From: Candidatus Xenobium occultum
Lineage (GTDB): Bacteria > Vulcanimicrobiota > Xenobia > Xenobiales > Xenobiaceae
Reading direction: 5' to 3'
NCBI GenBank assembly: GCA_002423485.1
Contig: DIWH01000081.1
Location: 11,612 to 75,611, forward strand
Length of the DNA stretch: 64,000 nucleotides
Positions within the stretch are counted from its first letter, which is position 1. The number at the start of each line of letters is the position of its first letter. A program made the position numbers and the translations under genes. The notes below the pieces were generated by a model. The model saw nothing but the letters and a program-made list of their open reading frames with translations, had not been told where the DNA came from and made no database searches. Positions 3,590-64,000 of the stretch are shown here, piece by piece.

Positions 3590-3751
3590 GCCTCCGGACT
3601 CTCGGCTGCCGGCGCGTCGGATGCGGGCGCCCGGACGTTCGCGGGGGAATTCCTGCCTCCTCCGCCCCGAGGGAAGATGACCCCCTCCGGGGAAGGGCGG
3701 TCCGGTCCGGGGGACAGGGATTCGGGGAATCGGATGGGGAATGGGCCGGGC

Positions 3752-48379: not shown

Positions 48380-48418
48380 CCTGCAGGACCCGACCCCCCT
48401 CGGGTCGGGTCCTGCAGG
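48380..48418 (+). terminator. Intrinsic terminator-like hairpin after deoA
   Basis: 17-bp perfect stem cctgcaggacccgaccc / gggtcgggtcctgcagg with loop ccct. Confidence 0.55.
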
Positions 48419-48878
48419 ATTCCCCGAAAGTCTGTGCGAAATCACTTGCGTTCGCGTTCCCGGAGCGGCGTTCCCTCAAAATCCATCCCGAGTGGCCCAT
48501 GGCAGGCCCTCGCGTGTGGAGTCTGGGGGCGCCCCGGATGGACGCTGGCGGCTTGTGCGAGGAGCGGAAGCGCTCGTCAAGCAGGTGCCCCGGACGGCCC
48601 GGGTCGGCCGTCTCCCCGCGTGGAGACGTGGCCCGCCCGATAGACCCGGCCTCTCCTGGGGAGGGGCGCCGGGTCGGCAGGTCCGGGACTCGGTCCCCTT
48701 GACCGGGGACAGGCCGTAGACACGCAGCGGCAGGTGGGTCCTTCTCGACAGGTGCCCTGCAGGCTGCGCGCGGCCGACCTTGGATTTTTTGGAACCGGCC
48801 GACTTCGAGCCTGCCTGCTCCAGGGCTGTTTCGGCCTTGGACCCTCGGACCTCCGGTTCCTGGAGGATTTTTCGACCC

Positions 48879-50999
48879 ATGCCGATCCGATGCGCGCGGG
48901 GGACGAAGGATGTCCTGCCCGCCGAGATTTCTACATGGCATTTCCTGGAAGACCTGGCCCGAGATCTGGCCGAAGACTATGGCTACCGCGAGATCCGCAC
49001 TCCGATGTTCGAGTATGCTGAGATCTTCCTCAAGGGGATGGGAGCCACGGCCGGACTGGTGGAGCGCGAGTTGTGGACCTTCCACGACAAGCATGGTCGC
49101 AAGTTGGCCCTCCGGGCCGACATGACGGCCCCCACCATGCGGGCCTGTCAGGACCATGCCCTGGTTCAACCTGAGCTCGGACCGACCCGTCTGTACTACC
49201 TGGGGTCGGTCTTCATGCACGGCCGGGAACGCGAGGTGGAGAGCCGTCAACTTCACCAGTTCGGGATGGAGGCCCTGGGCACCCGGGACCCTGCCCTGGA
49301 TGCCGAGGTCCTGGTGATGGTCTCGGACCTGTGCACGGCGTTGGGCCTTCCCCAGGTCGAGGTTCAGTTGAACACCCTGGGCTGCAAGAAATGCCGGCCG
49401 GCCTACCACCAGGTCCTGAAGGACTACTTCGGGGGGCGCCAGGACGAGCTGTGCAAGACCTGCAGGCGACGTTACCGTACCCACCCGACCTGGACTCTGG
49501 CCTGCCAGGCTGAGCCCTGTCTGGAACTCTCGCGGGTGGCTCCCTCGATCTACGGGACCCTGTGCCCGGACTGTCGCGAACATTTCTCGGCTTTGAAGAC
49601 CTACCTCAAAGAGCTCAAGGTCGACTATCAGTTGAATCCCCTGGTGGTTCGTGACCTGGAGTATTACGATCGGACCATCTTCCAGGTGACCTGCGCCGGA
49701 CGCCCGGTGGCCTTCGGGGGGCGCTATGACGAGCTCTCGACGGTGTTGGGAGGCCCACCCACTCCGGCGGTCGGCTGCTCGGTGGACCTCGAGCCGCTCC
49801 TGGAGGCGATGCGCGAGGCCGGCCTGGAGGCTCCCGGGCCCGAGCCACCCCGGGTTTGCCTGGCAGGCAACGGGCAGGAGGCGGTGGCCTTGCTTCTGCC
49901 GATCGTCTATGCCTTGCGTCGGGCGGGGGTCGGGGCCGACCTGGTCTACCCCTCCAAGCCTGAGGAGACCGCCGTTCAGGCCGCGGACCGGGCCACCTCG
50001 CCCTGGTTGGTCCTGCTGGAGGAGGAGGACGTGCGTCGTCGCGTCGTGACCCTGGTGGAGGTCGACAAACAGCGTCGGCAGCAGGTGCGCCTGGAAGAAG
50101 CCGTCTCGCGAATCGGTCGGGAACTGGGCCTGGAGGGACTCAAGGACGAGCTGCGTCCCGTCGAGGTCCGCCGGCTCTCCATCGGCCGGCGCCGTCGACC
50201 CGTGCGCAGTCGGGCCATGTACGGAGCGGATATCCCCCGGCTTTCGCGGACGTCGTCCTCTCGAGCCGAATCGGCCGAGGAGGCCGAACGCACCCGCCGC
50301 CGTCGTCGCCGCCGCTCGGGGAAGGGCGAAGAGGCCGAGACGCCCAGGCAGGGTTCCGCCGAAGAGCCGACCCGGCGCAACCGCAAACGCCGCCGTTCGC
50401 GGCGCGCCACCGAGACCACCCCGGCTGAAGTGGAGTCGGCTGCCGGGAGCCTGGATGCGGCCGCCCCGCAGGAGGGCTCCCGCCCAGAGACCTCCGAGAG
50501 GCCCCGTCGCTCTCGAAGGCGTCGCCACGAGTCAGAGGATTCGCTGGAGGCAGCCGCGGTTTCGGATGTGCCCTTGGAGACCTCGGCGGCCGGAGCCTCG
50601 GAGGAGTCCCCCAGACGCTCGGGTCGGGGCCGTCGGCGTCGCTCCGCTCCACCTGCGGGAGACCCGGTGGAGCCCTCCGCAGCGGAGAGCGCGGCCGAGG
50701 AAGTCTCCGGGACGGGTTCGGACGAGGAGTCCACGGGGACCCGTCGCCGTCGGGGCAGCCGTCGGCGCTCACGCCGGGGTGGTTCCCGGGGATCGGGAGC
50801 CGCCGAGGAGGCCCCTCGGAGTTCGGATTCGGAGGCTGGCTCCCAGAGGGAGGGGCCAGCGCCTGCACCCAACGGAGAGCGACCCTCCCCGGCGGCGGGA
50901 GATGCTCCTGAAGTCAAGCCCGCCAGGTCCCGGCGTCGCCGGGCTCCCAGAACCAAGGCGCAGGGTGGGGAATCGACCCCGTCCGGGGAGGATTCGTGA
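48879..50999 (+). CDS. hisS: Histidine--tRNA ligase with roughly 275-aa Arg/Ser/Glu-rich low-complexity C-terminal extension
   Basis: HisRS class II motifs (ARGTKD, ALRADMTAPTMRA, GGRYDEL) and anticodon-binding domain ending near aa 430. The same frame continues 275 aa (RRRRRRRSGKGEE...). Its stop overlaps the accB GTG (GTGA). Confidence 0.75.
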   Translation: MPIRCARGTKDVLPAEISTWHFLEDLARDLAEDYGYREIRTPMFEYAEIFLKGMGATAGLVERELWTFHDKHGRKLALRADMTAPTMRACQDHALVQPELGPTRLYYLGSVFMHGREREVESRQLHQFGMEALGTRDPALDAEVLVMVSDLCTALGLPQVEVQLNTLGCKKCRPAYHQVLKDYFGGRQDELCKTCRRRYRTHPTWTLACQAEPCLELSRVAPSIYGTLCPDCREHFSALKTYLKELKVDYQLNPLVVRDLEYYDRTIFQVTCAGRPVAFGGRYDELSTVLGGPPTPAVGCSVDLEPLLEAMREAGLEAPGPEPPRVCLAGNGQEAVALLLPIVYALRRAGVGADLVYPSKPEETAVQAADRATSPWLVLLEEEDVRRRVVTLVEVDKQRRQQVRLEEAVSRIGRELGLEGLKDELRPVEVRRLSIGRRRRPVRSRAMYGADIPRLSRTSSSRAESAEEAERTRRRRRRRSGKGEEAETPRQGSAEEPTRRNRKRRRSRRATETTPAEVESAAGSLDAAAPQEGSRPETSERPRRSRRRRHESEDSLEAAAVSDVPLETSAAGASEESPRRSGRGRRRRSAPPAGDPVEPSAAESAAEEVSGTGSDEESTGTRRRRGSRRRSRRGGSRGSGAAEEAPRSSDSEAGSQREGPAPAPNGERPSPAAGDAPEVKPARSRRRRAPRTKAQGGESTPSGEDS

Positions 51000-51424
51000 A
51001 GGACAAGTTGGAGATGGTGCGCTCTCTGGCCCGGGTGCTGCGGGAAGAGGGCCTGACCGAGCTGGAGTATGAGAACGAGGATCTGAAGGTGCGCCTGTCG
51101 GCAGAGCGGGAGGCCTCGACGGCAGCCCCACTGCCCATGGCCACGGTCCGGCCCGTTTCGCCCGCGGCCGAAGCCGAAGCTCCCGGCACCTCCATCCCCT
51201 CGCTTCTGGCCGGGGTCTTCTACCGGGCTCCCTCACCGGGGGCGGCTCCCTTCGTCCAGGAGGGGGACACCGTGGCTTGCGGGCAGACGGTCTGCATCGT
51301 CGAAGCCATGAAACAGATGAACGAGATCAAGGCCGAGGATGCCTGTCGGATCCTGAAGGTTCTGGTTGACGACTCCCAGGTGGTGCAGGCCGGCCAGCCT
51401 CTCTTCCGGATCGAGGCGCTCTGA
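50996..51424 (+). CDS. accB: Biotin carboxyl carrier protein (BCCP, AccB-like); no accC downstream
   Basis: Biotinyl-lysine motif CIVEAMKQMNEIKAE, Pro/Ala-rich linker. Confidence 0.8.
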   Translation: MKDKLEMVRSLARVLREEGLTELEYENEDLKVRLSAEREASTAAPLPMATVRPVSPAAEAEAPGTSIPSLLAGVFYRAPSPGAAPFVQEGDTVACGQTVCIVEAMKQMNEIKAEDACRILKVLVDDSQVVQAGQPLFRIEAL

Positions 51425-51451: not shown

Positions 51452-52666
51452 TCAGGGGCGCTCGACCACCATCGAGAAGCCCGGGTCGTAGGGAAGCCGG
51501 GTGTTTGTGACCAGCCGGAAGCCCGCCTCGGAAAGGACCCGGAGGATCTTCTCCTGGTCGGTGTCGGCCCGGAATCCTTCATGGATGGCCAGGCGACCTT
51601 TCGGGTTCAGTGAGTGCACCAGGTTGGGCAGCATCTTCTGGCGGAACCAGCCGAGGGTGCGGTTGCACACCAGGTGGACATCTTGCATGACCATCACGTC
51701 GATCTCGGGGACTCCGGGATTGTCGGGCGCGAGGGCCATCCGGAATTCCAGGCGGGGGGCCAGCGCCCGGAATTCCGGGCGCGTCCTGGTGTACTCGACG
51801 AAATCCCCCAGGCTGGAGTCGATTTCCACCACGTAGACCTTGCCGGTGGGGCCGACCCTCCGGGCGGCCTGCCAGGCCAGAAGGCCCAGCCCCCCTCCCA
51901 CTTCCACGACCCTCTTGCCTTCCAGGTTGCCCAGGCGATCCAGCAGCGCTTCGTTGGGCGGAACGTTCTTCGCCGAGAATCGAGTGCCCAGACCTCCGCC
52001 GAGCTGGGGGAAGATTTCCCGTCTGGCCCCGAGTTCTTGGCGCTGGCGGATGAACTCCGCGGCGGATTGCCGGGGATTGGCGAAGATGAAGTCGTAGCAG
52101 ACCGTCTCGTAGGGGTCCAGGTCCTTCTTGCGATGCTCGCCCTCACCCAGTTCCTCGGTCAGGTAGGTCAGGTAGAGAACGCTCTGGAAGCGGATGCCCC
52201 TGCCGCTCCCGGGATGGGGAATTCCGGGATTGGGGATCTTCAGAAGATCTCGCGCCTCCTCCATGCGGCCCCGCAGGGCCGCCCGGTCTTCCGGTCGGGA
52301 TTTCAGGTATTCCAGGAGGATGTTCTCGGCGGCCGTTTCCGAGGGCAGCGAACCCAGGGCAAAATTCTCGGTGGACGGACCGGGGGGCGAGGTGGACATG
52401 GCCGAGGCTCCCTGAGCGAACGGGCCGGGAGGTTCCGCTGGCGAAGGAGAGGGCGCCAGGGCCTGCAGGGTCTGGTGGATGGCCACCCCAAGCAGGAGCG
52501 CCAGCATGAGGCCCCGCCAGACATTGTTGAGGCTGGACGCCCTCGGAGACCTGGACGCACGTCCTGGCTGCCGGTGGGAGCCGGAATTCGGGCTGGTCGC
52601 CCCGGGTTCCGTCCCGAGGGAGACCGGGGAGGGCCCCTGGGAACAGGAATCCGGGTCAGCTTTCAT
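51452..52666 (-). CDS. Class I SAM-dependent methyltransferase with roughly 220-aa N-terminal extension and signal/TM segment
   Basis: VVEVGGGLGLLA (GxGxG SAM motif) in the C-domain. N-terminal LMLALLLGVAIHQTLQALA hydrophobic segment. Start ATG 52666; the 718-aa ORF is over-extended. Confidence 0.7.
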   Translation of the reverse strand: MKADPDSCSQGPSPVSLGTEPGATSPNSGSHRQPGRASRSPRASSLNNVWRGLMLALLLGVAIHQTLQALAPSPSPAEPPGPFAQGASAMSTSPPGPSTENFALGSLPSETAAENILLEYLKSRPEDRAALRGRMEEARDLLKIPNPGIPHPGSGRGIRFQSVLYLTYLTEELGEGEHRKKDLDPYETVCYDFIFANPRQSAAEFIRQRQELGARREIFPQLGGGLGTRFSAKNVPPNEALLDRLGNLEGKRVVEVGGGLGLLAWQAARRVGPTGKVYVVEIDSSLGDFVEYTRTRPEFRALAPRLEFRMALAPDNPGVPEIDVMVMQDVHLVCNRTLGWFRQKMLPNLVHSLNPKGRLAIHEGFRADTDQEKILRVLSEAGFRLVTNTRLPYDPGFSMVVERP

Positions 52667-52707: not shown

Positions 52708-54876
52708 TCAGGTTCGCCTTCCGTCCAACATCAGATCCAGGTCGCGCGGTCGGGGGACGGCCGGCTCGCGGGCGTCCCAGTTGATCCACAGGTAGAGGGT
52801 GGCCGGCAGTGTCAGGGTGGTGAAATAGCGAAGGCGCGAGGTGGGCTGAAGTCCGCGGCCCTCGCTCCAGTGCCATCCTCCGAAGGGTCGCATCTGGCCG
52901 CGGGCATGGTTGTAGCGGAAGCGGGTGGGGAAGATCGGGTTGATCCGGGCGTGGAGGCGTTTGCCCCGGACCAGGCATCCCATGTCTCCCCGCATCAGGA
53001 TGTCCATGTGGGGAGCCAGCAGGAGGTTCGTCTCCACCATGGCCTCGCCCTGGCCCTCGAAGCGATCCCGCACGATGACGGTCTTGGCGTTGGGCCGGAA
53101 GAGGACGTCGCGGTGCAGAGGCCAGGCCTGGTCGGGCCCTGACCAGATGGCTCGGGTGGCGGAGAACAAGACTCCGCCTTCGCGCTCCTGCATGCGCACT
53201 TCCCGACAGGCCGGGTGCCCCTCGGGGAGTGCTCGGCAGACCAGCGGCTCGGGCTCGCCCTGAAGGCGCGGGGCAGAGTGGTAGCCGACGCGTGACAACA
53301 AGTGGCTTGCAGGGCTCTGGAGAGGGGGAAGCCCGGGCTCGATCAGGAAGGGCTCGCCATCCAGGACCAGGCAAAGGCTCAGCGCGTCGTCGTGGTGGGA
53401 AGGGTTCTCGCGTTCGGGGGGTGGCAGCACCCGGCCGTCGTGGAAGCCACCTGGGGCGGGGGCCCCCCGCAGCAGACACCAGGATGCCTTGCCCTCCCAG
53501 TGGTCGCGAGCGCAGGTCAGCCCCACCTCGCTGAAGAGCCTGCGATTGGTCCCCGGATCCTGGTTGTGCAGGCCGTTGTACTGCTCGGCGGCCCCTGGAC
53601 CGCACCACCAGTACAGTTCACCCGGCATCTCCCGATTCGGTGCCCGGAACTCTCCGCGGCGCAGGGTCAGGGCGCCGAGGGCCAGCAGTCGGCGGCCGTG
53701 CTCGGAAGACCCACAGTTCCATCCCAGGAATCCCGGCGAGGCGCTCTGGCCCAGGTCGGGCACCAGACCGGCCGGGGGGCGCAGGTGGTTGAGGGCGTCC
53801 AGGGAGGCGGTGGCAGCCTCGGTCAGTCCCGCCGGCGGAGCCGTGCGGTTCAGGAAGTGCAGGGTCAGCGGCAGGAGCAGCCACTCGGCGGCCAGGCGGT
53901 GTCGGGCCACCGAGCCGGACCGGTGCAGTCCGTCGCGTCCCAGTTCCCAGGCGGCCGATCGGGCCAGGGCGGATCCGGCCAGGTCCAGCCAGCGACGCGA
54001 CAGCAGCATCTCGGGCATGCTCAAAGCCAGGATGTACAGACCCGAGGCGGCGGCCAGGGGGGCTTGCTCCGAGTTCCGGACGAACCAGGCCAGGACGGCC
54101 CCGTGCAGGACCAGGCAGGACACGATGCGTGCCAGCAGGTCGGGGGTCAACTGCTCGGAACCCAGGAACATGTGCAGGGCCAGAAGCCAGTTGGTGCAGC
54201 GAGCGGCCACGGTCTCGGGGTCCAGCCAGTTGACGCCCTCCAGGGGGCGGTTGCGTTCGCTCCAGTCCACGACCTGGACGATGAACTCGCTGGCGAAACG
54301 CTCGTATCCGGTCAGCCAGTAGGCCCTTCCCATCTGGACGAAGTGCGAGTGGCGATTGAACTCCCAGGTCACCGCGATGGGGCCCATCTCCACCGTGGGC
54401 ATCGGCTGGCGGCCGGCAAACTGCTCGCGCAGGTCCAGCAGGTGGGCGCGCCCCCAACTGTGATCCCGGAAGTCCGAGAACCAGTCGATGGTGCCGCCAA
54501 AGGACTGCGGCTCCACCCCCAGGGGAGAGAAGCGGTGGGCCAGCAGGTCTTCGGTCCCCTGCAGGATGGCCCGGCAGTCGGTGGGATGCTGTTCGAGCCG
54601 GGGGCGAAGCAGATGGGGCTCGGAGTAGTGCAGGAAGAAGATCGGCCGGATCCGGTCGTGGAAATGCTCCAGGAACGCTTCCGCGGCCAGATCCAGCCGG
54701 CCTCGTCGGGCCTGCCCCCGGGCCTCGTCGGTGCCCGGGGTGCCGGCGAACTGGGCATAGAGATCCTCACCCTCCAGACGAAGCGAGGCTCGCTCCTCCA
54801 GACAGCGGGCCAACCGCTGCTCGAGGTCGAGGGGATTGGGACGCCTGCCCAGGCGCCGGCGCAGCCACCCGAACAT
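52708..54876 (-). CDS. Heparinase II/III-like (alginate-lyase fold) protein
   Basis: Size and N-terminal alpha/alpha-toroid then C-terminal beta-sandwich pattern of the Hepar_II_III family. Call is by overall similarity, not a single motif. Confidence 0.55.
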   Translation of the reverse strand: MFGWLRRRLGRRPNPLDLEQRLARCLEERASLRLEGEDLYAQFAGTPGTDEARGQARRGRLDLAAEAFLEHFHDRIRPIFFLHYSEPHLLRPRLEQHPTDCRAILQGTEDLLAHRFSPLGVEPQSFGGTIDWFSDFRDHSWGRAHLLDLREQFAGRQPMPTVEMGPIAVTWEFNRHSHFVQMGRAYWLTGYERFASEFIVQVVDWSERNRPLEGVNWLDPETVAARCTNWLLALHMFLGSEQLTPDLLARIVSCLVLHGAVLAWFVRNSEQAPLAAASGLYILALSMPEMLLSRRWLDLAGSALARSAAWELGRDGLHRSGSVARHRLAAEWLLLPLTLHFLNRTAPPAGLTEAATASLDALNHLRPPAGLVPDLGQSASPGFLGWNCGSSEHGRRLLALGALTLRRGEFRAPNREMPGELYWWCGPGAAEQYNGLHNQDPGTNRRLFSEVGLTCARDHWEGKASWCLLRGAPAPGGFHDGRVLPPPERENPSHHDDALSLCLVLDGEPFLIEPGLPPLQSPASHLLSRVGYHSAPRLQGEPEPLVCRALPEGHPACREVRMQEREGGVLFSATRAIWSGPDQAWPLHRDVLFRPNAKTVIVRDRFEGQGEAMVETNLLLAPHMDILMRGDMGCLVRGKRLHARINPIFPTRFRYNHARGQMRPFGGWHWSEGRGLQPTSRLRYFTTLTLPATLYLWINWDAREPAVPRPRDLDLMLDGRRT

Positions 54877-54877
54877 G

Positions 54878-55993
54878 CTATCCCACCGGGGCGGGCGCGG
54901 GTGAGAACGCCTTCAGGGCCCCCAGGACGGTCTCGATCTGCTGCTCGGTGAGTTCGGGGAACATCGGCAGCGAGAGGACCTCCGCCTGGGCCTTCTCGCT
55001 GACCGGCAGCGAGCCGGTCGACAGCCCTTGGTGGGAGAAGGCCTTCTGCATGTGCAGGCACACCGGGTAGTAGATCACCGCGCCGACGCCCGAGGCCTGC
55101 ATGTGCTTCTGCAGGGCATCCCGGTCCGGGGCACGCAGGGTGTACTGGTGGTACACGTGTTCGCAGCCTTCCTTCTCGGTGGGCGGCGTGGCGTAGGTTC
55201 CCCGCAGACCGGCCGTGTAGGTCGCGGCAATCTCTCGGCGTCGGAGGTTCCAGGCCTCCAGGTGGCGCAGCTTGACCCGCAGGACGGCGGCCTGGATCTC
55301 GTCCAGTCGGCTGTTGGTTCCCACCATGTCGTGGTAGTAACGGACCTTCGAGCCGTGTCCGCGCAGCATCCGCACCTTTTCAGCCAAATCGGGATTGCTG
55401 GTCAGGACCATCCCGCCGTCGCCGATCCCGCCCAGGTTCTTGCTGGGGAAGAACGAGAAGCAGCCCAGGTCTCCCAGGCTGCCCGCGCGGCGGCCCTTCA
55501 GGGTGGCTCCGGTGGACTGGGCGCAGTCCTCGACCAGGCCCAGGCCGTGGCGCCGGGCGATGGCCTGCAGCTCTTCCATGGGAGCGGGGTGCCCATACAG
55601 GTGGACCGCCACGATGGCTCGGGTGCGGGGCGTGATGGCCGCCTCGACGCTGGCCGGATCAAGAGTGTAGGTCTCGGGATCGATGTCGGCAAAGACCGGA
55701 GTCGCTCCCGTCAGGGCCGCCGCGCCGGCCGTGGCCACGAAGGTGAAGGAGGGGCAGATGACTTCGTCACCTGCTCCCACGCCCAGGGCCCGCAGGGCCA
55801 GGTGCAGGGCGTCGGTCCCGTTGCCGACACCGGTGCCGAACTCGGCCCCGTTCCAGGCTGCGAATTCGGCCTCGAAGGCCTCGACCTCGGGTCCCAGGAT
55901 GTAGTGGGTGGATCGCAGGGCGCGCAGGGCGGCTTCCTCGACCTCGGTCTTGATCTGGGCGTATTGGGTGGACAGTTCCAGGATGGGGATCAT
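54878..55993 (-). CDS. DegT/DnrJ/EryC1/StrS family sugar aminotransferase (WbpE/WlbC-like)
   Basis: PLP-dependent fold with FSFFPSKNLGGIGDGGMV (Lys in SKN). Confidence 0.85.
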   Translation of the reverse strand: MIPILELSTQYAQIKTEVEEAALRALRSTHYILGPEVEAFEAEFAAWNGAEFGTGVGNGTDALHLALRALGVGAGDEVICPSFTFVATAGAAALTGATPVFADIDPETYTLDPASVEAAITPRTRAIVAVHLYGHPAPMEELQAIARRHGLGLVEDCAQSTGATLKGRRAGSLGDLGCFSFFPSKNLGGIGDGGMVLTSNPDLAEKVRMLRGHGSKVRYYHDMVGTNSRLDEIQAAVLRVKLRHLEAWNLRRREIAATYTAGLRGTYATPPTEKEGCEHVYHQYTLRAPDRDALQKHMQASGVGAVIYYPVCLHMQKAFSHQGLSTGSLPVSEKAQAEVLSLPMFPELTEQQIETVLGALKAFSPAPAPVG

Positions 55994-56057
55994 CGTCTTG
56001 GCTACCTTCTATCTGGGCTCCAGAGAGCGGCTGAGCCGCTTCTCGGCCCCCCCGGTT

Positions 56058-56909
56058 TCAGGACTTCTTCTGGGCGCTGAGCAGTTGTTCGGGTGGTGTG
56101 GGGCGCACCACCCGGGCGGGCACCCCGTAGGCCACCTTCATGGCCGGAACGGCCCGGGTCACCACCGACCCGGCTCCCACGACGGCCTCCTCGCCGACCT
56201 CGACGCCGGGAAGCAGCACCGCGCCTCCTCCGATCCGGCACCCCGAGCGCAGCACGCATCCTTTGCGGTGCTTGAAGCGCTCTTCGGTGCGGGCCAGGTA
56301 GTTGTCGTTGGTGGTGGCCACCGCCGGGGCCACGAAGATGTGGTCCTCCAGGGTGGACAGGGCCGTGATGTAGACCTCGGCCTGAAGTTTGGTGGATTCG
56401 CCGATGGTCACGTCGTTCTCGACGGTGGCCCCGCGGCCCACGATCACGCGCCGGTCCAATCGGCAGCGCTCGCGGATCGAGGCCAGGTCGGCGACGAAGA
56501 CCTCTTCGGCCAGGACCGTCCCGGCGTAGATCACCGACAGGGCCCCCACTGTGCACCCGGGCCCCATCGTCAGGGGAGGCAGTTCACCGGCGGCCTTCAG
56601 CGTGCTGGTGGAAGCCGTGGTGGGCAGTTTGCCGAGGATCGTGTGGTCTCCCACCAGGCTTCGGGCGCCCACCCGGGTGCGGGGGTGGATCACCACGTGG
56701 GAACCCAACCGGACTCCGTCCTCCAGGACGGCCCCCTCGCCGATCACCACATGGGAGCCGATCTCAACTTCGGCGCCCAACCGGACGCCGCGATGAAGAT
56801 GACAGAAGGGGCCGAGGCGGCAGCCCGGCTCGATCCGGACGTCGGCCTCCACCACCGTGAAGGCGGGAAGTTCAAGGTCTGCAGGCAGTTGTGCTGAGGC
56901 GTCGATCAA
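56058..56909 (-). CDS. Left-handed beta-helix (hexapeptide) sugar N-acetyltransferase (WbpD/WlbB-like)
   Basis: Multiple hexapeptide repeats (IGEGAVLEDGVRLGSHVVIHP...). Confidence 0.8.
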   Translation of the reverse strand: MIDASAQLPADLELPAFTVVEADVRIEPGCRLGPFCHLHRGVRLGAEVEIGSHVVIGEGAVLEDGVRLGSHVVIHPRTRVGARSLVGDHTILGKLPTTASTSTLKAAGELPPLTMGPGCTVGALSVIYAGTVLAEEVFVADLASIRERCRLDRRVIVGRGATVENDVTIGESTKLQAEVYITALSTLEDHIFVAPAVATTNDNYLARTEERFKHRKGCVLRSGCRIGGGAVLLPGVEVGEEAVVGAGSVVTRAVPAMKVAYGVPARVVRPTPPEQLLSAQKKS

Positions 56910-57906
56910 GGTTGTTCTCCTCCAGGACCTTCCAGGTTCCCCCGTCGTGCAGTGACTTCGTCGCGGCCTCCAGGACCTGCACCACCTGGTGGCCCAGGGT
57001 GCCCCCGCTGCGGGGGCGCTTGCCCGCGCGCACGCAGTGCAGGAAGTGGCGGCATTCCCGAGCCAGGGGCTGCTCGGAGGCCAGTTGTGGAAAGCGGTCG
57101 GTTCCCGAGACCATGAGACCCTTCACCGGGTCGAAGCGCCGGTCGGTGACTCGCAGGCGGTTGTGGGGATTCAACTCGTCCACCACGGCCATGCCTTTGC
57201 GCCCCACCACCGTCAACCGGCGCTCCATGCCGGGATCCAGCCATGAGAACTGCGCCGCGGCGATCCGGTTCCCGGGAAAACGCAGTTCCAGGAAGACCAG
57301 GTCCTCGATGCCCGGCTGAAGCCAGGCCTGCCCGAAGCAGTGCACCTCGGTGGGCATCTCGCCCAGCAGGAACAGGAAGACGGCCACGTCGTGCGGGGCC
57401 AGGCTCCACAGCACGTTCTCGTGCTTGCGCACCCGGCCCAGATTCACCCGGCGGGCCTGCAGGTAGAGGATCTCGCCCAGGGTGCGGGCCTTCAGGACGG
57501 CCTTGAGCTCTTCGATGGCCGGCATGAACAGGGGGAGATGGCCCACCATCAGCGTCCGCCCCCGACGCCGGGACAACTCGACCAGGTGCTGGGACTCCTC
57601 GCTGGACAGGGCCATGGGTTTTTCCAGGAAGACCGGGAAGCCGGCCTCCAGGGCGCGGCGGGCCAACGGGTAGTGGGTCACCGCCGGGGTGGCGATGGCC
57701 ACGGCTTCGAAGGCGCCCTCGGCCAGGGCCTGGTCCAGCGACTCCCAGACGGGGACCTCGGGATAGGTGCCCCGCGCCTCGGCCAGCAGGTTGGGATTGA
57801 TCTCGCAGATCCCGCTCAGGGCTTCGAGGTCGTGGAAGTTGCGGATCAGGTTGCGGCCCCAGTCCCCGGCTCCCAGGACCAGGACTCCTGCACCGGGCTG
57901 TTTCAT
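56872..57906 (-). CDS. Gfo/Idh/MocA family oxidoreductase (WbpB/WlbA-like UDP-GlcNAcA 3-dehydrogenase)
   Basis: Rossmann GAGDWG and EKPMALS motifs. Start ATG 57906 in ATGA overlap with the upstream gene. Confidence 0.8.
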   Translation of the reverse strand: MKQPGAGVLVLGAGDWGRNLIRNFHDLEALSGICEINPNLLAEARGTYPEVPVWESLDQALAEGAFEAVAIATPAVTHYPLARRALEAGFPVFLEKPMALSSEESQHLVELSRRRGRTLMVGHLPLFMPAIEELKAVLKARTLGEILYLQARRVNLGRVRKHENVLWSLAPHDVAVFLFLLGEMPTEVHCFGQAWLQPGIEDLVFLELRFPGNRIAAAQFSWLDPGMERRLTVVGRKGMAVVDELNPHNRLRVTDRRFDPVKGLMVSGTDRFPQLASEQPLARECRHFLHCVRAGKRPRSGGTLGHQVVQVLEAATKSLHDGGTWKVLEENNLDRRLSTTACRP

Positions 57907-59258
57907 CGCGCCTTCCCATCCTGGTTCGGAGCGCCCAGTCGGGTGATTCCCTTGAGGCTCTCCAGGCCCCGGGTGACGCCGCGGGTGTCCACCAGGCGTC
58001 GGCTGCGCGCGGCGATCTCCGCCAGATCGTAGGTCGAGTGGTCGGTGGCCAGGACCACGCAGTCGTAGTCCTCCAGGTTCGCGAGGTCGACCGATTGCAT
58101 CTCGGTGCCCGAATGGCAGCGGAAGGTCGGGATCAAGGGGTCGTGGTAGTCCACCCGGGCACCCCGGTTCCGGAGAATTTCCAGGACCCGCAGGGAGGGC
58201 GACTCGCGAGGGTCGGCCACGTCCTTCTTGTAGGCCACCCCCAGCACCAGCACCCGGGCCCCCTTCAGGCCCTTCTCGCCCAGGGCCTCGACCACCAGGC
58301 TGACCACGTGGTAGGGCATGCGGGTGTTGATCTCCCCGGCCAGTTCGATGAACCGGGTCTGGTGGTCGAACTCGCGGGCCTTCCAGGTCAGGTAGAAGGG
58401 GTCCAGGGGGATGCAGTGCCCGCCGATCCCGGGGCCGGGATGGAAGGGCATGAAACCGTAGGGTTTGGTGGAGGCCAGCTCGATGATCTCCCAGACATCC
58501 AGGCCCATCTCGCGGCACAGGATGGCCAGCTCGTTGACCAGGGCGATGTTCACGCTGCGGAAGATGTTCTCGAAGAGCTTCTCCATCTCGGCGGCCCGGG
58601 TGGAGGTGGCCCGCTTGACCAGGTCGGGACGGTCCAGCATGCGCGAGTAGAGCAGAGCCGTCAGATCCCCGCAGGTGGGGGTCAGCCCGCCCACCACCTT
58701 GATGGTGTTGTAGGTATTGTAGTTCGGGTTCCCGGGGTCCACCCGTTCGGGCGAGAAGGCCAGGAAGTAGTCCTCGCCGGCCTGCCGGACCCGTCCTGCG
58801 GCTTCCAGGGCGGGGCGGACCACCTCCTCGGTGGTTCCCGGGTAGGTGGTGCTCTCCAGGACCACCAGGGTGCCCGGGCGGATATGCTGACCGATGCGCT
58901 GGCTGACGTCCTGGACGTAGCTGATGTCCGGCTCGCGGTTCCGGGTCAGGGGCGTGGGCACGCAGATGATGATGGCGTCGCAGGTCTCCAGGACCGAGAA
59001 GTCCCGACCGGCGTGCAGGCGCTCGGCTACCAGGGGCTTGAGTTCGTCATGGTGGCCGTCGATATAGTCGAAGCCTTCCGACAGCAGGCGAACCTTTTCG
59101 GCGTTGTCCTCCAGCCCTTCCACGGCGAATCCCCGACGGGCGAAGCCCATCGCCAGGGGAAGCCCCACGTATCCCAGGCCGATCACGGCCACCCGGGCGG
59201 TCCCCTCCTGGATCTTGCGCCGCAGGGCCCCCGCCAGGTTCTGCTCCAGGTCAATCAT
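57903..59258 (-). CDS. UDP-N-acetyl-D-glucosamine 6-dehydrogenase (WbpA/WecC family)
   Basis: VAVIGLGYVGLP NAD motif and catalytic Cys context GGHCIPLDP. Confidence 0.85.
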   Translation of the reverse strand: MIDLEQNLAGALRRKIQEGTARVAVIGLGYVGLPLAMGFARRGFAVEGLEDNAEKVRLLSEGFDYIDGHHDELKPLVAERLHAGRDFSVLETCDAIIICVPTPLTRNREPDISYVQDVSQRIGQHIRPGTLVVLESTTYPGTTEEVVRPALEAAGRVRQAGEDYFLAFSPERVDPGNPNYNTYNTIKVVGGLTPTCGDLTALLYSRMLDRPDLVKRATSTRAAEMEKLFENIFRSVNIALVNELAILCREMGLDVWEIIELASTKPYGFMPFHPGPGIGGHCIPLDPFYLTWKAREFDHQTRFIELAGEINTRMPYHVVSLVVEALGEKGLKGARVLVLGVAYKKDVADPRESPSLRVLEILRNRGARVDYHDPLIPTFRCHSGTEMQSVDLANLEDYDCVVLATDHSTYDLAEIAARSRRLVDTRGVTRGLESLKGITRLGAPNQDGKAR

Positions 59259-60303
59259 GTCGATACCCCTCTAGCACTTCCGCAATTCGCTCCGCAGCGT
59301 GCCCATCCCCGTACAGGGGCGGCCGGTCCTGAGGAGGCCTGAAGCCGTCAAGCCCCTCCAGGACCCGTTGCGGGTCCAGGCCGACCAGGCGATTCCAGCC
59401 GACCTGCACCGTCTCCACCCACTCGGTCTCTTCGCGCAGGGTCAGGCAGGGAGTGCCCAGGAAGTAGGCCTCCTTCTGCAGTCCCCCGCTATCGGTCAGG
59501 ACCAGCCGGGCATGTCGGGCCAGACCGAGCATGTCCTGGTGTCCCACCGGATCCATCAGACGGAGCGCACCATTTGTCAGACGGTCTTCCCACCCCTGCT
59601 GCCGGATCATCTTTCGGGTCCGAGGATGGCAGGGGAAGAGGATCGGTTCCCGGTGGGCCGCCAGGGCCTGAAGGAGTGGTTCCAGGCGGTCCCACGAGCG
59701 GGTGCTCTCCTCTCGATGCAGGGTCATCACCAGGTAGGGCTCCTGGGGCCTGGGGAAGGTGCTGCCGCGCTCCAGGGCCGCCCGGGTGGCGTCCAGCATC
59801 AAGTCCCCGACCTGGTGGACGCCTCGGGTGATCCCCTCGCGGGCCAGATGCTCGACGGCCACCTGACTGGGGGCGAAGAGCAGCGTCGAGAGGCGGTCGG
59901 TCAGGACCCGGTTGATCTCCTCGGGCATCGGCGCGAAGCTGCGCAGTCCGGCCTCGACGTGGGCTACGGGCAGGTGCAGTTTGGCGGCGGCCAGGGCGGC
60001 GGCCAGGGTGGAGTTGGTGTCCCCGAAGACCACGACCATCTCGGGAGGCTCGGCCAGCAGGACCTCTTCGATCTTCTCCAGCATCCGGCCGGTCATGGCC
60101 CCGTGGCTGGCGCTGCCCACGCCCAGGTGGTGGTCCGGGGCCGGCAACCGCAGCTCCTGGAAGAAGACCTCCGACATCTCCTGGTCGTAGTGCTGGCCGG
60201 TGTGGATCACGCGGGGCTGGCAGAAGCGCGGCAGCAGACGGGCCAACGGGGCCAGCTTCACGAACTGGGGTCGGGCTCCGACCACCAGCGTCAGGCGTCT
60301 CAT
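59251..60303 (-). CDS. UDP-N-acetylglucosamine 2-epimerase, non-hydrolysing (WecB/WbpI family)
   Basis: GARPQFVKLAP, HTGQHYD, DSGGLQKEA motifs. Confidence 0.85.
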   Translation of the reverse strand: MRRLTLVVGARPQFVKLAPLARLLPRFCQPRVIHTGQHYDQEMSEVFFQELRLPAPDHHLGVGSASHGAMTGRMLEKIEEVLLAEPPEMVVVFGDTNSTLAAALAAAKLHLPVAHVEAGLRSFAPMPEEINRVLTDRLSTLLFAPSQVAVEHLAREGITRGVHQVGDLMLDATRAALERGSTFPRPQEPYLVMTLHREESTRSWDRLEPLLQALAAHREPILFPCHPRTRKMIRQQGWEDRLTNGALRLMDPVGHQDMLGLARHARLVLTDSGGLQKEAYFLGTPCLTLREETEWVETVQVGWNRLVGLDPQRVLEGLDGFRPPQDRPPLYGDGHAAERIAEVLEGYRHD

Positions 60304-62096
60304 TCCGGAACCTCGGTTTCCGCTGACGTTCGCAGGGGCTCGCGCAACTGGGCTTCATAGAGCCGGCTGTAGATGCCGTGCCGGGCCATCAACTGATCGT
60401 GCCGACCCTCTTCGACGATCTGCCCGGCGTCCAGGACCAGGATCCGGTCGGCGTGGCGGATGGTGTTCAGCCGGTGGGCGATCACCAGACATGTCCGCCC
60501 CTCCATGGCCCGGGCGATGGCGTCGGCGATCAGGTTCTCGGATTCGGCGTCGATCCCCGAGGTGTACTCATCGAGGATCAGGATCCGGGGGTCCCGCAGC
60601 AGGGCCCGGGCGATGGCGATGCGCTGGCGCTGACCGCCCGAGAGGCGCAATCCCCTTTCGCCCACCTCGGTCTGGTAGCCGTCCGGCATCCGCACGATGA
60701 ACTCGTGGGCGTTGGCCAGCTTCGAGGCGCGCAGCACCTCCTCATCGGTGGCCGTGGGGCTGCCGCAGCGGATGTTGTCATCGATGGTACCCCCGAAGAG
60801 GACCGATTCCTGGATCACGGTGCCGATCTGGGTCCGCAGCGAGCGCAGCTTGACCTGCTTGAGGTCGTGCCCGTCCACCTTGACCGAGCCGGAGACCGGG
60901 TCGTAGAAGCGCGGGACCATGTTGACCAGCGTGGTCTTGCCCGCGCCGTTGGCCCCGACCACGGCCACCACCTCACCCGGCCGGATCGACAGGTTGATTC
61001 CCCTCAAGACCGGCTTTTCGGGGTCGTAGTGGAAGTGCACGGACTCGAAGTCGATGGCTCCCTGCAGGCGGGGCAGTTCCAGGGCTCCCTCGGGTTCGGC
61101 CACCTCGGGAGTCATGTCCATCAGCTCGAAGACCCGGCGCCCGGCGGCCGCTGCGCTGTTGGCGGTTCCGTAGAAGCCCGACAGGGCGCTGATGGGGTGG
61201 GAGGTCATCACCATCAGGGTCCAATACTCGGTCATCTGGGCGAAGGTCACCTGGCCCTGCATGACGCGCGTGGCCCCGAACCACACGATGGCCACGATGC
61301 CGAAAGCCCCCAGCAGCTCGACCACCGGGGACTGGATGGCCGAGACCTGCACCAGCTTCATCTGGGCGGCGAAGTTGTCCTCATTGCGGCAGGCGAAGCG
61401 GCGGACCTCAAAGTCCTCGCGGGTGTAGGCCTTCACCACCTTGATGGTGGAGATGTTCTCATACAGCAGGGCCGACAGGTCCGCCAGGCGGGCCTGGAGC
61501 TTCTCGGAGCGCTGGCCCATCCGCCGGCCGAAGTTGGCCACGGCCGTGCCCACCAGGGGGCTGATCAGCAAGACCACCAGGGTCATCTGCCAGTCGCGGT
61601 AGAACATCCAGCTCAGGCAGGCCACCACCACCAGCAGGTTCTTGACGAAGTCCGAGAGGGCCATGTAGACGCTGGTGGACAGCAGGATGTCGTTGGAGGC
61701 CCGCGAGTGGATCTCGCCCAGGCGCATCCGGTCGAAGAAGGCCATCGGCAGGCGCTGCAGGTGGGTGAAGACCTGGTCGCGGAAGTCCCGGACCGCCTGC
61801 TGGCCGCCCAGATCGATGGTGTAGCGCTGGAAGTAGGTCGAGGCCCCCATCACCGCCATCACGGCCAGGAAGGCCAGGCAGATCAGGTTCAGGCGCATGA
61901 AGGGGTCCTGGCCGTCCGAGTAGTTGAAGGACTCCTGGGACATCATGCCCATGATCAGGCCCACGAACTTGGCTTGGGACAGGCGCGCGGCGGTCACGAC
62001 GACGGTCAGCAGCAGGGCCCCCAGGACGATCTTCCAGTAGGGCCGGATGTAGCTCAAGAGGCGCCAGAGCACCTGCGCAAGCTGTCGAATCGACAA
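60300..62096 (-). CDS. ABC exporter, fused permease-ATPase (MsbA/lipid-flippase type)
   Basis: Six-TM ABC_membrane domain then Walker A GANGAGKTT, signature LSGGQRQR, Walker B ILILDEYTSGID. TTG start 62096 with GGAGG RBS. The 878-aa ORF is over-extended. Confidence 0.8.
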   Translation of the reverse strand: MSIRQLAQVLWRLLSYIRPYWKIVLGALLLTVVVTAARLSQAKFVGLIMGMMSQESFNYSDGQDPFMRLNLICLAFLAVMAVMGASTYFQRYTIDLGGQQAVRDFRDQVFTHLQRLPMAFFDRMRLGEIHSRASNDILLSTSVYMALSDFVKNLLVVVACLSWMFYRDWQMTLVVLLISPLVGTAVANFGRRMGQRSEKLQARLADLSALLYENISTIKVVKAYTREDFEVRRFACRNEDNFAAQMKLVQVSAIQSPVVELLGAFGIVAIVWFGATRVMQGQVTFAQMTEYWTLMVMTSHPISALSGFYGTANSAAAAGRRVFELMDMTPEVAEPEGALELPRLQGAIDFESVHFHYDPEKPVLRGINLSIRPGEVVAVVGANGAGKTTLVNMVPRFYDPVSGSVKVDGHDLKQVKLRSLRTQIGTVIQESVLFGGTIDDNIRCGSPTATDEEVLRASKLANAHEFIVRMPDGYQTEVGERGLRLSGGQRQRIAIARALLRDPRILILDEYTSGIDAESENLIADAIARAMEGRTCLVIAHRLNTIRHADRILVLDAGQIVEEGRHDQLMARHGIYSRLYEAQLREPLRTSAETEVPE

Positions 62097-62164
62097 GGCG
62101 TGACCTCCATCCTGGCCGTGGGCCCGAACTTCGAAACTCAAGTTTAGGGGGTTGAACCGCTTTG

Positions 62165-64000
62165 TCAAGGAGAGCCGAGGACAGGGGGCCGGGGGCTCGG
62201 GTCGGCGGGGGGCGGTCGCAGGCGGAAGAGCTCGGCCCCGAGACCCGGTTCGAAGAGCCAGGTTCCCAGCGGCTCGGCCTGAAGGTCGGGGCCCCCCGGG
62301 AACGCCTTGCGCCACGCGATCAGGGCCGCGGCGGGCCCCCGGGCGTTCACCTTCCGGCTCACCACCAGGAAGGCCGGCAGGGAGTCGCCGATTTCCGACG
62401 TGGGGATCCTCCAGCTCTGCAGTTCGCCCTGGTCCAGGGGGATGCGGGCCGGGATGCCTCGATAGTTCGCGAAGACCTTGAACCATGAGGGGTGGACCAC
62501 ATCGCCTTCGGCGCTCAGGACCCAGAGCAGGAACTCGCCTTGAGCCCGGGCGTGGGCGCACTCCAGAATCGGAGCCATCACCGGGGGCTGCAGGTGGGGA
62601 AGCTCGGCCAGCAATGGCAGGGGGCGGTTGGGAGCGTGGCTCACCGGAGCGATGCCGGCTCCGACGTAGTGTCGGAGGGGGGGCACGGGGCGCAGCGGCG
62701 CCGGGAGAGCCCAGCCCAGGACCGTGAAGACCCCCCACAGTCCCAACAAGACCGCCACAGCCCAGCGCGCCGGGCGGTTTGGAGAGGCCCATCCCGTGGC
62801 CAACAGGGCGGCGAAGCCCAGCACGTTGGCCAGGTAGATCTCGAACTTCCCCGAGACGGCGTTGATCAGGACGAAGGTCCAGACGAGCATTCCCAGGATG
62901 AAGCCCCGTCCCGGGTCGCGGTCCTCCCGGCGCCATCCGGCCAGCGCCAGGCCCACCCCCAACAGGGCCAGGTGCAGCCCGTTAAAGGATCGGTCCGCCA
63001 TGACATGCAGATAGTAGAGTGGGTCGAACCAGATCGTCCCGTGCAGCGTCCCCTCCAGGGCCGTCCGGACCCGCTCGTCCAGCATGGCGGACAGGTCCCG
63101 GACGCACAGGTAGGGCAGCAGGGTCAGCATCAGGGCGGTGCCGGCCAGAAGGGCGTTGCCGGCCCGACCGCCGGGAGGCCGGGAGCGGTTGGTCCAGGCC
63201 GCCAGGACTGCCAAGGCCAGCAGGGAGCCCAAGGCCACCAGGGGGAACGAGTCGGACCTCCCCAGGGCCAACAGGGGGCCCCGCAGCGCCAGCCAGGCGA
63301 AGGGCGCCGACAACCCGGCCAAGGCCAGGCCGAGAAGGGCCAGGGCCTTCCCGGCGCGCGACAGCGACCAGCGCAGGGGAATCCGGGCGATGAGGAAGGC
63401 CACCGGCAGGATCCACTGGGCCACGAACTCAGGCTTGGTCATGGCCCCCAGGGCCAGGGTCACGCCGAACCAGAACGAGGCCCCCCGCCGGCGCAGGAAG
63501 TCGCTGGCCACCAGCAGCGCCGCGCACAGCAGGGACAAAGCGTGGCTGCCGACCTCCAGGGGATACTCTTTGGTGATGCTGGCGAAGAGCGGCAGGGTGA
63601 AGAGGTACAGGCAGGCCAGGAACCCCGCGCCCGGGCCATACAGGCGCCGCCCCAGGAAGAAGAGCGAGGCGGCGTAGACGGGCAGCCACAGGACCTGGGA
63701 GGCGTTGAGAAGCCCCAGGGCCGGCTGACGCAGGCTGAACAGGGCCGCGGCGGGCAGCAGGCCGACGGGGCCGTAGTGCGAGACCCTCAGCGCCCCGGCC
63801 AGATCCCCCGCGACCAGGTGCCTCCAGAAGTCCAGGGCGTCCCCGGCGTGAATCGGGAAGTCATAGCTGTAGCGGACCTGGCTGTGCGCCAGCCAGGACA
63901 GGTTGTTGAGTCCCAGGACCAGGACCAGCGCGACCGTGGCCGCGGGGGCCAGCCAGGAGGCCGGCGCGGATCCCGCGCGGGAACCGCCCCCCGGGCGCAG
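62165..64000 (-). CDS. Polytopic membrane glycosyltransferase, GT39/GT83 (PMT/ArnT)-like; 5' end beyond window
   Basis: Frame is open from the window edge to stop 62165 with more than 12 TM helices. Resembles dolichyl-phosphate-mannose / undecaprenyl-phosphate-sugar dependent transferases. Confidence 0.5.
   Translation of the reverse strand: MRPGGGSRAGSAPASWLAPAATVALVLVLGLNNLSWLAHSQVRYSYDFPIHAGDALDFWRHLVAGDLAGALRVSHYGPVGLLPAAALFSLRQPALGLLNASQVLWLPVYAASLFFLGRRLYGPGAGFLACLYLFTLPLFASITKEYPLEVGSHALSLLCAALLVASDFLRRRGASFWFGVTLALGAMTKPEFVAQWILPVAFLIARIPLRWSLSRAGKALALLGLALAGLSAPFAWLALRGPLLALGRSDSFPLVALGSLLALAVLAAWTNRSRPPGGRAGNALLAGTALMLTLLPYLCVRDLSAMLDERVRTALEGTLHGTIWFDPLYYLHVMADRSFNGLHLALLGVGLALAGWRREDRDPGRGFILGMLVWTFVLINAVSGKFEIYLANVLGFAALLATGWASPNRPARWAVAVLLGLWGVFTVLGWALPAPLRPVPPLRHYVGAGIAPVSHAPNRPLPLLAELPHLQPPVMAPILECAHARAQGEFLLWVLSAEGDVVHPSWFKVFANYRGIPARIPLDQGELQSWRIPTSEIGDSLPAFLVVSRKVNARGPAAALIAWRKAFPGGPDLQAEPLGTWLFEPGLGAELFRLRPPPADPSPRPPVLGSP

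Follow-up and report, generated by a model that had tools for sequence, protein, structure and literature searches.

The stretch of DNA analyzed here (the window) comprises 64,000 nucleotides from Candidatus Xenobium occultum and contains a gene whose product resembles histidyl-tRNA synthetase (HisRS) and continues past the synthetase domains into a long charged tail; a gene for a biotin carboxyl carrier protein (BCCP) follows directly. An earlier reading made without database searches (the sequence-only reading) had placed the end of the HisRS domains near residue 430, followed by a charged, low-complexity tail of about 275 residues containing RRRRRRR, and had noted a GTGA overlap onto a BCCP gene without an accC partner. 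The domain, structure and neighborhood analyses presented below bore out these observations. The comparison with related proteins did not uphold the picture of a working HisRS that had gained a tail, as the Arg, Glu and Arg of motif 2 and the Arg of motif 3 were absent here and in every tailed relative. We consider it very probable that the gene belongs to a family of dead HisRS paralogues with a genuine, translated tail, and the protein is referred to as pseudo-HisRS throughout.

48862..48866, forward strand: Shine-Dalgarno sequence GGAGG, 12 nt upstream of the ATG at 48879
48879..50999, forward strand: pseudo-HisRS gene, 706 aa plus stop, ATG start

A GGAGG was found 8-12 nt ahead of the start codon in all related loci, and this recurring spacing fixed the start at 48879. 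The N-terminus M-x-I/V-R-x-x-R-G-T was common to all relatives of the window protein. Comparing hisS length in close relatives, as the sequence-only reading had suggested, gave exactly 706 aa in P0001-P0005, a set with identities of 84-100% in which P0002-P0005 were 84-90% identical to the window protein in the protein search, and tails in all 50 clusters of the related proteins described below.

The HisRS core and its altered active site

Pfam matched tRNA-synt_His at residues 8-307 (162 bits) and HGTP_anticodon at residues 334-412 (25 bits), with zero matches in residues 430-706, no domain apart from the HisRS domains and no kinase domain. An AlphaFold2 model built from 97 homologues predicted the full-length HisRS fold with confidence, with values of the predicted local distance difference test (pLDDT) above 90 over residues 1-425. 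A Foldseek search with this folded part returned the full-length bacterial HisRS structures 4E51, 1ADJ and 1KMM, with target template-modeling (TM) scores of 0.88-0.91 over about 420 columns. Searched alone by sequence, the anticodon-binding domain found almost no match in the PDB (E=1e-3 at best); it is nevertheless structurally present, because the Foldseek match spans full-length HisRS.

In the protein search, the first HisRS of normal length was preceded by 50 clusters of HisRS-like proteins, 558-1135 aa long. Key alignment columns were tabulated over 120 homologues, consisting of 50 tailed and 70 normal-length proteins, with the window protein aligned to E. coli HisRS (1KMM). The tailed clade was monophyletic in a neighbor-joining tree and includes a high-GC branch and a low-GC branch of gut organisms (Candidatus Bruticola and relatives). 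The features of the core were as follows.

48978..49013, forward strand: class II motif 1 YGYREIRTPMFE, dimer interface, conserved, with E38, R40, T41 and P42 invariant across the clade
49194..49280, forward strand: degenerate motif 2, FMHGREREVESRQLHQF instead of FRHERPQKGRYRQFHQ, by alignment to 1KMM
49377..49586, forward strand: insertion domain with the Cys pairs C169/C172, C192/C195, C209/C214 and C229/C232, the stretch CRRRYRTHP, and W205
49641..49685, forward strand: remodeled HisA loop, VVRDLEYYDRT (canonical VRGLDYYTRT), R258 kept in the window protein
49713..49736, forward strand: retained HisB motif FGGRYDEL, with G280, R282 and D284 invariant and Y283 in 36 of 50
49764..49805, forward strand: degenerate motif 3, GCSVDLEPLL instead of GFAxGxERL (R311 to P306, G303 to D)
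49851..50153, forward strand: anticodon-binding-domain fold with diverged sequence (HGTP_anticodon 25 bits, pLDDT above 90, Foldseek)

Five columns, given below in E. coli numbering, separated the tailed proteins from those of normal length.

Motif-2 Arg113: Met in the window protein; canonical in 0 of 50 tailed and 70 of 70 normal-length proteins
Motif-2 Glu115: Gly in the window protein; canonical in 0 of 50 tailed proteins, Glu or Asp in 70 of 70 normal-length proteins
Gln118: Arg in the window protein; canonical in 0 of 50 tailed and 70 of 70 normal-length proteins
Arg121: Glu in the window protein; canonical in 0 of 50 tailed and 70 of 70 normal-length proteins
Motif-3 Arg311: Pro (P306) in the window protein; canonical in 0 of 50 tailed and 70 of 70 normal-length proteins

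The Arg and Glu of motif 2 and the Arg of motif 3 are the residues with which class II synthetases hold ATP. Judged by their replacement, canonical ATP binding is not possible for pseudo-HisRS. In the HisRS-tRNA structure of T. thermophilus, Glu114 (E115 in E. coli) was described as absolutely essential for aminoacylation, Gln117 and Arg120, as well as Arg204 and Lys209 of the insertion domain, touch the acceptor 3' strand and the CCA end, and the equivalents of R7, R116 and R123 clamp the 5' phosphate of G-1 (PMC4357726). Across the tailed clade, the equivalents of R204 and K209 were replaced, by W205 in 50 of 50 proteins and by P, E or Q at position 210, and the equivalents of the clamp residues R7, R116 and R123 were mostly retained.

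Other parts of the active site were kept in the window protein. Its motif 2 retained R116, R123, Q127 and E131, and the histidine-pocket residues Q127, E131, R258, Y262/Y263 and GGRYD (Y283) were present, with Asp at the residue equivalent to E83. Additionally, the tailed proteins shared residues of their own, including D259 of the HisA loop (50/50, versus Gly in 70/70 canonical proteins), W205 (50/50, versus the 'NPLR' Arg in 70/70 canonical proteins) and W66 (50/50, where the canonical residue is Tyr). The gain of these new invariant residues argues against plain decay. The Cys residues of the insertion domain were also invariant or near-invariant among the tailed proteins, and the CKRRYRxHP stretch of the clade was more basic than its counterpart in canonical enzymes. 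Altogether, a ratio of nonsynonymous to synonymous substitution rates (dN/dS) of 0.05 in the core, the new invariant residues and the Shine-Dalgarno sequence at all loci indicate that the protein is functional and not decaying.

The disordered tail and its translation

In the AlphaFold2 model, residues 429-706 were without secondary structure (pLDDT below 50). The composition of this region was 22% R, 16% D+E, 14% S, 13% A, 10% G, 9% P and 7% hydrophobic residues, and a RRRRRRR run occupied residues 473-479. Charges in the window tail were segregated in blocks (z=8.4, reached by 0 of 1000 shuffles), and relatives gave z values of 2-8.

50148..50174, forward strand: junction motif ELRPVEVRR, in 26 of 50 clusters including the low-GC branch
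50163..50996, forward strand: disordered Arg/Ser/Glu/Ala-rich tail, residues 429-706 (278 residues), pLDDT below 50
50289..50318, forward strand: first poly-Arg tract RTRRRRRRRS, with R477/R478 at least 90% conserved
50499..50561, forward strand: short linear motif RPRRSRRRRHESEDSLEAAAV (R-rich, then E[SN]EDSLE..V), in 18-19 of 50 clusters from several subclades and in 0 of 70 canonical proteins
50916..50957, forward strand: C-terminal Arg-rich patch KPARSRRRRAPRTK; an R-rich patch ends most family members

Across the 50 clusters, tail lengths ranged from 150 to 721 aa and charged residues from 29 to 57%, and R/K runs of at least five residues were found in 44 of 50 tailed proteins versus 0 of 70 canonical ones. 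The motifs of the tail include ELRPVEVRR, with the consensus ELRPVEVR[RK] across clusters at the domain-tail boundary, and RRSRRRRHESEDSLE. The design of the tail (composition, blocks, Arg runs and short motifs) was thus kept although its sequence drifts. The resemblance to RNase-E-like tails suggested by the sequence-only reading held at the level of grammar, with short motifs set among Arg-rich and acidic blocks. In RNase E, the non-catalytic region is likewise disordered and composition-biased, and contains Arg-rich microdomains that bind RNA and short motifs that bind partners (PMC4435900).

Taken by itself, the window provided weak evidence for translation of the tail. An open frame of 278 codons at 73% GC has a chance probability of P~0.012, GC by codon position was flat in the tail and gave no frame signal, and the mirror frame was open across the whole tail as an antisense open reading frame (ORF; 49976-50956, reverse strand, 326 aa). 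Against P0002, dN/dS in the annotated frame was 0.05 in the core, 0.04 over residues 416-460 and 0.36 over residues 461-706, and the other frames gave 1.05-2.7, except for the mirror frame. In the tail, the sense (0.36) and mirror antisense (0.39) frames were not separable by this measure, and the mirror frame was also low in the core. The antisense ORF was considered as a gene and rejected as a GC/codon-phase artefact, the same mirror effect being seen in the HisRS core.

The coding frame of the tail, on which dN/dS could not decide, was resolved because low-GC homologues keep stop-free frames: in genomes at 42-46% GC the stop-to-stop frame still measured 987-1090 codons (chance P~1e-15). Among the relatives compared, there was no orthologue lacking the tail or having a separate gene in its place. 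A protein search with the tail alone was flooded by low-complexity candidates, and its sole return was the assembly fragment P0233. This tail-only database protein was rejected as a true split gene, as it lies on a contig of 0.72x coverage in which every gene is fragmented. These comparisons provide strong evidence that the tail is a genuine translated C-terminal extension and not a frameshift, a missing stop or a fused gene. The fusion of a separate gene through a missing stop or frameshift, which the sequence-only reading had offered as an alternative, was refuted by the 50 clusters, the 26 genomes described in the following section and the frames at 42-46% GC.

Distribution and genomic context

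A genome scan identified the same gene in 26 of 185,579 species-representative genomes, and a profile search of 1.84 billion representatives added seven further members, resulting in about 23-25 clusters at 50% identity. The record titles of the carriers were Vulcanimicrobiota (Eremiobacterota), Candidatus Xenobia, Candidatus Bruticola and UBP9. By these comparisons the family is a single old lineage, and in the sampling so far it is confined to class Xenobia (UBP9) of the Eremiobacterota/Vulcanimicrobiota. No description of this family was found in the literature. A few metagenome-assembled genomes with the Xenobia-specific gene and synteny (L014, L017, L026-L028 and L035) were labelled 'uncultured Burkholderiales', 'Candidatus Riflebacteria' or 'Selenomonadaceae'; these labels are probably taxonomic mislabels in the records.

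Other HisRS-like proteins with unusual features were also encountered. P0241, P0242, P0243 and L048:8001-9980 represent a second type of long-tailed protein, of 502-714 aa. In this type the motif-2 and motif-3 Arg were kept, His or Tyr replaced the HisA Arg259, and the tail carried RD/RE repeats, an 'ARF[AD]EWAA.Y.EAAR' motif and a C-terminal GRRHGRRRPR; the setting of P0243 is different, with genes for STAS, anti-sigma kinase and sigma factor proteins beside it. Beyond the Xenobia family, then, altered HisRS paralogues with charged tails may occur more widely. In addition, P0318 (430 aa) and P0355 (458 aa, with a Lys-rich N-terminal extension) were tail-less, with a degenerate motif 2 and/or 3 and Asp at the HisA Gly, and are further candidate pseudo-synthetases.

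The genes and hairpin flanking pseudo-HisRS, and the BCCP remnants found in relatives, were as follows.

48380..48418, forward strand: perfect 17-bp GC-rich hairpin directly after the pdp stop, between nrdR-punA-pdp and pseudo-HisRS
50996..50999, forward strand: GTGA overlap of the BCCP GTG start with the pseudo-HisRS TGA stop; same 4-nt overlap in L001, L003 and L011
50996..51424, forward strand: AccB-type BCCP, 142 aa (Biotin_lipoyl 61.5 bits)
L003:12205-12402 and L014:~12301-12459: BCCP remnant, 65 aa, with only the AccB N-terminal segment MIVQALARIVREEGLVELEFESGDLKVRL left

The order nrdR-(punA)-pdp, a gap of 130-1200 nt and then pseudo-HisRS was found at 38 of 38 clade loci, with an ftsA-like gene ahead of nrdR wherever 10 kb flanks were annotated. 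The downstream BCCP scored 116.3 on TIGR00531 (cut-off 115.2), and its alignment with E. coli AccB (4HR7_B) took in the N-terminal segment, the thumb and the biotinylation motif AMK (AMKQ). Throughout the high-GC branch, to about 42% identity, an AccB-type BCCP was located 0-240 nt downstream, often with the 4-nt overlap. In the P0006/P0008 lineage, 79-86% identical to the window protein, the BCCP was reduced to a 65-aa ORF that is still 4-nt overlapped; the biotinyl domain is truly deleted there, because a convergent gene begins 70 nt on. The low-GC branch had no BCCP beside the pseudo-HisRS gene. The coupling to an orphan BCCP proposed by the sequence-only reading is therefore real and involves a protein of the ordinary AccB type, but by these comparisons it is a conserved trait of the high-GC branch, with a remnant in one lineage, and not of the whole family. 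The BCCP was an orphan in that no biotin carboxylase gene (accC) was present among the ORFs scanned in the 64 kb window and no accA/D was nearby. His genes were absent from the window and from the annotated flanks of relatives, and PADLOC gave no defence-system match for pseudo-HisRS or the BCCP.

Upstream of the gene, the 17-bp hairpin may act as a terminator, a role put no more firmly because no U-tract follows it. A second hairpin (48850-48866, CCTCCGG-TTC-CTGGAGG) pairs the Shine-Dalgarno sequence with an anti-Shine-Dalgarno sequence and is followed by ATTTTT; it was kept in the closest relatives only, and the 512-nt leader was conserved among close relatives only. An RNA element in the leader is not claimed here, given the lack of an Rfam match and of conservation past close relatives.

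Downstream of the BCCP, a convergent ORF (51452-52507, reverse strand, 351 aa) had no Pfam match and a weak PADLOC hit to mad2 of the 'mads' candidate defence system (E=3.8e-9, residues 186-334), and a relative's version gave weak methyltransferase hits. The region 52708-62936 (reverse strand) encodes heparinase II/III-like, DegT aminotransferase, hexapeptide acetyltransferase, GFO/IDH oxidoreductase, UDP-sugar dehydrogenase, UDP-GlcNAc 2-epimerase and ABC exporter proteins, and several Xenobia genomes had this cluster, in one orientation or another, together with the pseudo-HisRS/BCCP pair. Elsewhere in the window, an ORF of 938 aa (1055-3871, reverse strand) had a spermidine/spermine synthase domain (residues 635-786) as its sole Pfam match.

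Proposed function, alternatives and known systems

We propose that pseudo-HisRS, which keeps the catalytic, Cys-rich insertion and anticodon-binding domains and the motif-1 dimer interface without the residues that bind ATP and the CCA end, could serve as a non-enzymatic dimer that binds RNA and acts as a scaffolding hub. The new invariant residues W66, W205 and D259 lie in the former active-site cleft, and the remodeled core may supply a module for ligand or RNA recognition. The two tails of the dimer would provide multivalent electrostatic RNA binding and dock partners through short motifs, in the manner of the non-catalytic region of RNase E. Aminoacylation would be carried out by a separate active HisRS elsewhere in the genome, which would have to exist because pseudo-HisRS would not charge tRNA. 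The RNA-binding scaffold mechanism specifically is drawn by analogy and is tentative, the balance leaning somewhat against it. As a whole, a dead HisRS derivative acting as an RNA-binding scaffold is the best explanation, with about even chances of being correct, a compromise between its two parts.

Several observations weigh against this explanation. The window protein scored 324.8 on the TIGR00442/NCBIfam hisS model, above the cut-off of 286.75 (a canonical HisRS scored 486.5, and the relative P0013 fell below the cut-off with 231.7). No second, intact HisRS was present in the window or at 38 related loci. Canonical docking of tRNA(His) is unlikely because the contacts to the tRNA 3' strand (Q118, R121, E115 and the equivalents of T. 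thermophilus R204/K209) are gone. The grounds for RNA binding by the tail are two, its composition and analogy, and no RNA partner was found nearby: the window contained no tRNA gene, and Rfam returned nothing credible in the window, nor in the 512-nt leader at relaxed thresholds. Past about residue 460 the tail had no sequence similarity outside close relatives. Additionally, the low-GC branch has lost the histidine-pocket residues (R259 to P, Q127 to R, Y to C), and therefore no single small-molecule ligand suits the whole family. As this branch lost the pocket yet occupies the same genomic position, the ancestral family function cannot be histidine activation. With regard to a separate HisRS, the closest canonical hits by identity (P0099 and P0076) were in relA-dtd-hisS-aspS contexts, and a protein search seeded with P0099 gave no match named as Xenobia.

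Among the alternatives, a GCN2-like protein that senses uncharged tRNA(His) or histidine to regulate translation or gene expression, with the tail as its output to ribosome, RNA or nucleoid, survives best and is unlikely. The architecture is parallel, in that a basic region comes after a dead HisRS-like module, the 5'-phosphate clamp residues R7, R116 and R123 are mostly kept, and GCN2 is activated by the binding of uncharged tRNA to its HisRS-related domain (PMC4335047). A sensor of this kind is harder to reconcile with the lost CCA-end and acceptor-strand contacts, the strongly diverged anticodon-binding domain and the lack of a kinase or other enzymatic output domain, and there is no sequence kinship to GCN2 beyond shared HisRS ancestry.

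A role tied to AccB, in which the protein would for instance assemble, tether or regulate acetyl-CoA carboxylase and the coupling would match protein amounts, is quite improbable. The position of an AccB-type BCCP 0-240 nt downstream across the high-GC branch, often overlapping by 4 nt, would fit such a role, as would the lineage of P0006/P0008, where the 65-aa N-terminal peptide remains overlapped without its biotinyl domain. Adjacency alone is no proof of interaction, however, and the low-GC branch has no adjacent BCCP, with no accC or accA/D nearby.

Very improbable is a HisZ-like function as the histidine-sensing regulatory subunit of a short-form ATP phosphoribosyltransferase. Like HisZ, pseudo-HisRS is a HisRS paralogue without catalytic residues (PMC5388404); the window protein retains the histidine-pocket residues, and NCBI records give some relatives the name 'ATP phosphoribosyltransferase regulatory subunit'. 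The HisZ models nevertheless performed no better on it than on true HisRS, as TIGR00443 gave 151.7 against a cut-off of 271.65 (a genuine HisRS scored higher, 181.9) and the protein was far under every cut-off of the NF0089xx models. In addition, pseudo-HisRS has a tail and retains the anticodon-binding domain, neither the window nor the annotated flanks of relatives contained a his gene (short-form HisG, the partner of HisZ, is usually encoded next to it), the tailed clade branches apart as its own group, and its low-GC branch is without the histidine-pocket residues.

That the protein is the organism's working HisRS with an appended RNA-binding tail is highly improbable. Eukaryotic synthetases do bear Lys-rich tRNA-binding extensions, and the full HisRS architecture and fold, the hisS score above cut-off, the lack of another HisRS within the window and the retention of Q127, E131, R258, the GGRYD Tyr and the clamp residues R116 and R123 in the window protein are all compatible with this. 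On the other side, the motif-2 Arg and Glu and the motif-3 Arg were replaced in 50/50 tailed proteins and kept in 70/70 of normal length, the orthologous low-GC branch also lost R259 and the histidine-binding residues, and the lost E. coli E115 equivalent (Glu114) is essential for aminoacylation (PMC4357726). An artefactual tail (missing stop, frameshift fusion or GC-driven spurious ORF extension), which the window alone (flat GC by codon position, open mirror frame, P~0.012) and the tail-only P0233 might suggest, has next to no probability in view of the architecture common to 50 clusters and 26 genomes from independent assemblies, the stop-free tails at 42-46% GC, the equal length of 706 aa at 84-90% identity, the in-frame purifying selection and conserved motifs, and the 0.72x-coverage contig with all genes broken that explains P0233.

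A bolder version of the dead-synthetase scaffold would place pseudo-HisRS beside HisZ and the GCN2 domain as a third HisRS-derived pseudoenzyme of independent origin, in which a dead dimer anchors an RNA-protein hub or condensate, a pocket with W66, W205 and D259 senses histidine or an RNA end, and the tails recruit RNA and partners, possibly AccB through its N-terminal segment. This version is speculative and rather unlikely; if true, RNA metabolism or lipid synthesis in Xenobia would be tied to amino-acid or tRNA status. There are few pseudoenzymes derived from synthetases, and unexpected biology has come with each of them (HisZ, GCN2, the accessory subunit of DNA polymerase gamma, and EpmA). 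Pseudo-synthetases as a kind are already known; the combination of the full-length fold with a mixed-charge disordered tail is unusual for bacteria, where such eukaryote-like tails are, to our knowledge, rare. A class-level lineage would retain a full-length, catalytically dead HisRS under strong selection. The family is a clean natural experiment in the repurposing of an aminoacyl-tRNA synthetase fold and, apart from the RNase E paradigm, a tractable candidate for a scaffold or condensate of RNA and protein in bacteria. The tailed relatives were named histidine--tRNA ligase or HisZ in databases, a mixture that arises because the hisS model passes its cut-off even for the diverged window protein and the HisZ models fail. 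With such annotations and a passing hisS score, the family may be miscounted as a translation enzyme or a single-copy marker.

Compared with known systems, the downstream BCCP shares with E. coli AccB the N-terminal segment, the Ala/Pro linker, the thumb and the biotinyl-Lys motif, and differs in that no accC follows it and that it is translationally coupled to pseudo-HisRS by overlap. A co-located accC is typical of many bacteria and not obligatory. The tail resembles the non-catalytic C-terminal region of RNase E as a long, disordered, biased region with Arg-rich segments, conserved short motifs and fast sequence drift (PMC4435900). This likeness is one of analogy and not homology: the tail is attached to a dead synthetase instead of a nuclease, and no partner or membrane-targeting motif was identified in it.

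With the class IIa bacterial HisRS enzymes (E. coli 1KMM, T. thermophilus 1ADJ/4RDX), pseudo-HisRS has in common the domain order and fold, the motif-1 interface, GGRYD and, in the window protein, the histidine pocket; it differs by the loss of R113, E115, Q118, R121 and R311, the invariant Asp and Trp substitutions and the disordered tail of 278 aa. The HisRS-like and C-terminal domains of GCN2 offer a similar succession of a degenerate HisRS module and a basic region, and in GCN2 this serves to bind uncharged tRNA rather than to charge it (PMC4335047). In contrast to GCN2, pseudo-HisRS is bacterial, has no kinase domain, carries a far longer and disordered tail and arose independently. HisZ, the only HisRS paralogue mentioned as lacking aminoacylation activity in a survey of prokaryotic aminoacyl-tRNA synthetase paralogues (PMC5388404), is similar as a HisRS paralogue without the aminoacylation residues. 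Pseudo-HisRS, which fails the HisZ hidden Markov models, keeps its anticodon-binding domain, has a tail and is not located beside his genes, appears to have been derived from HisRS independently of HisZ.

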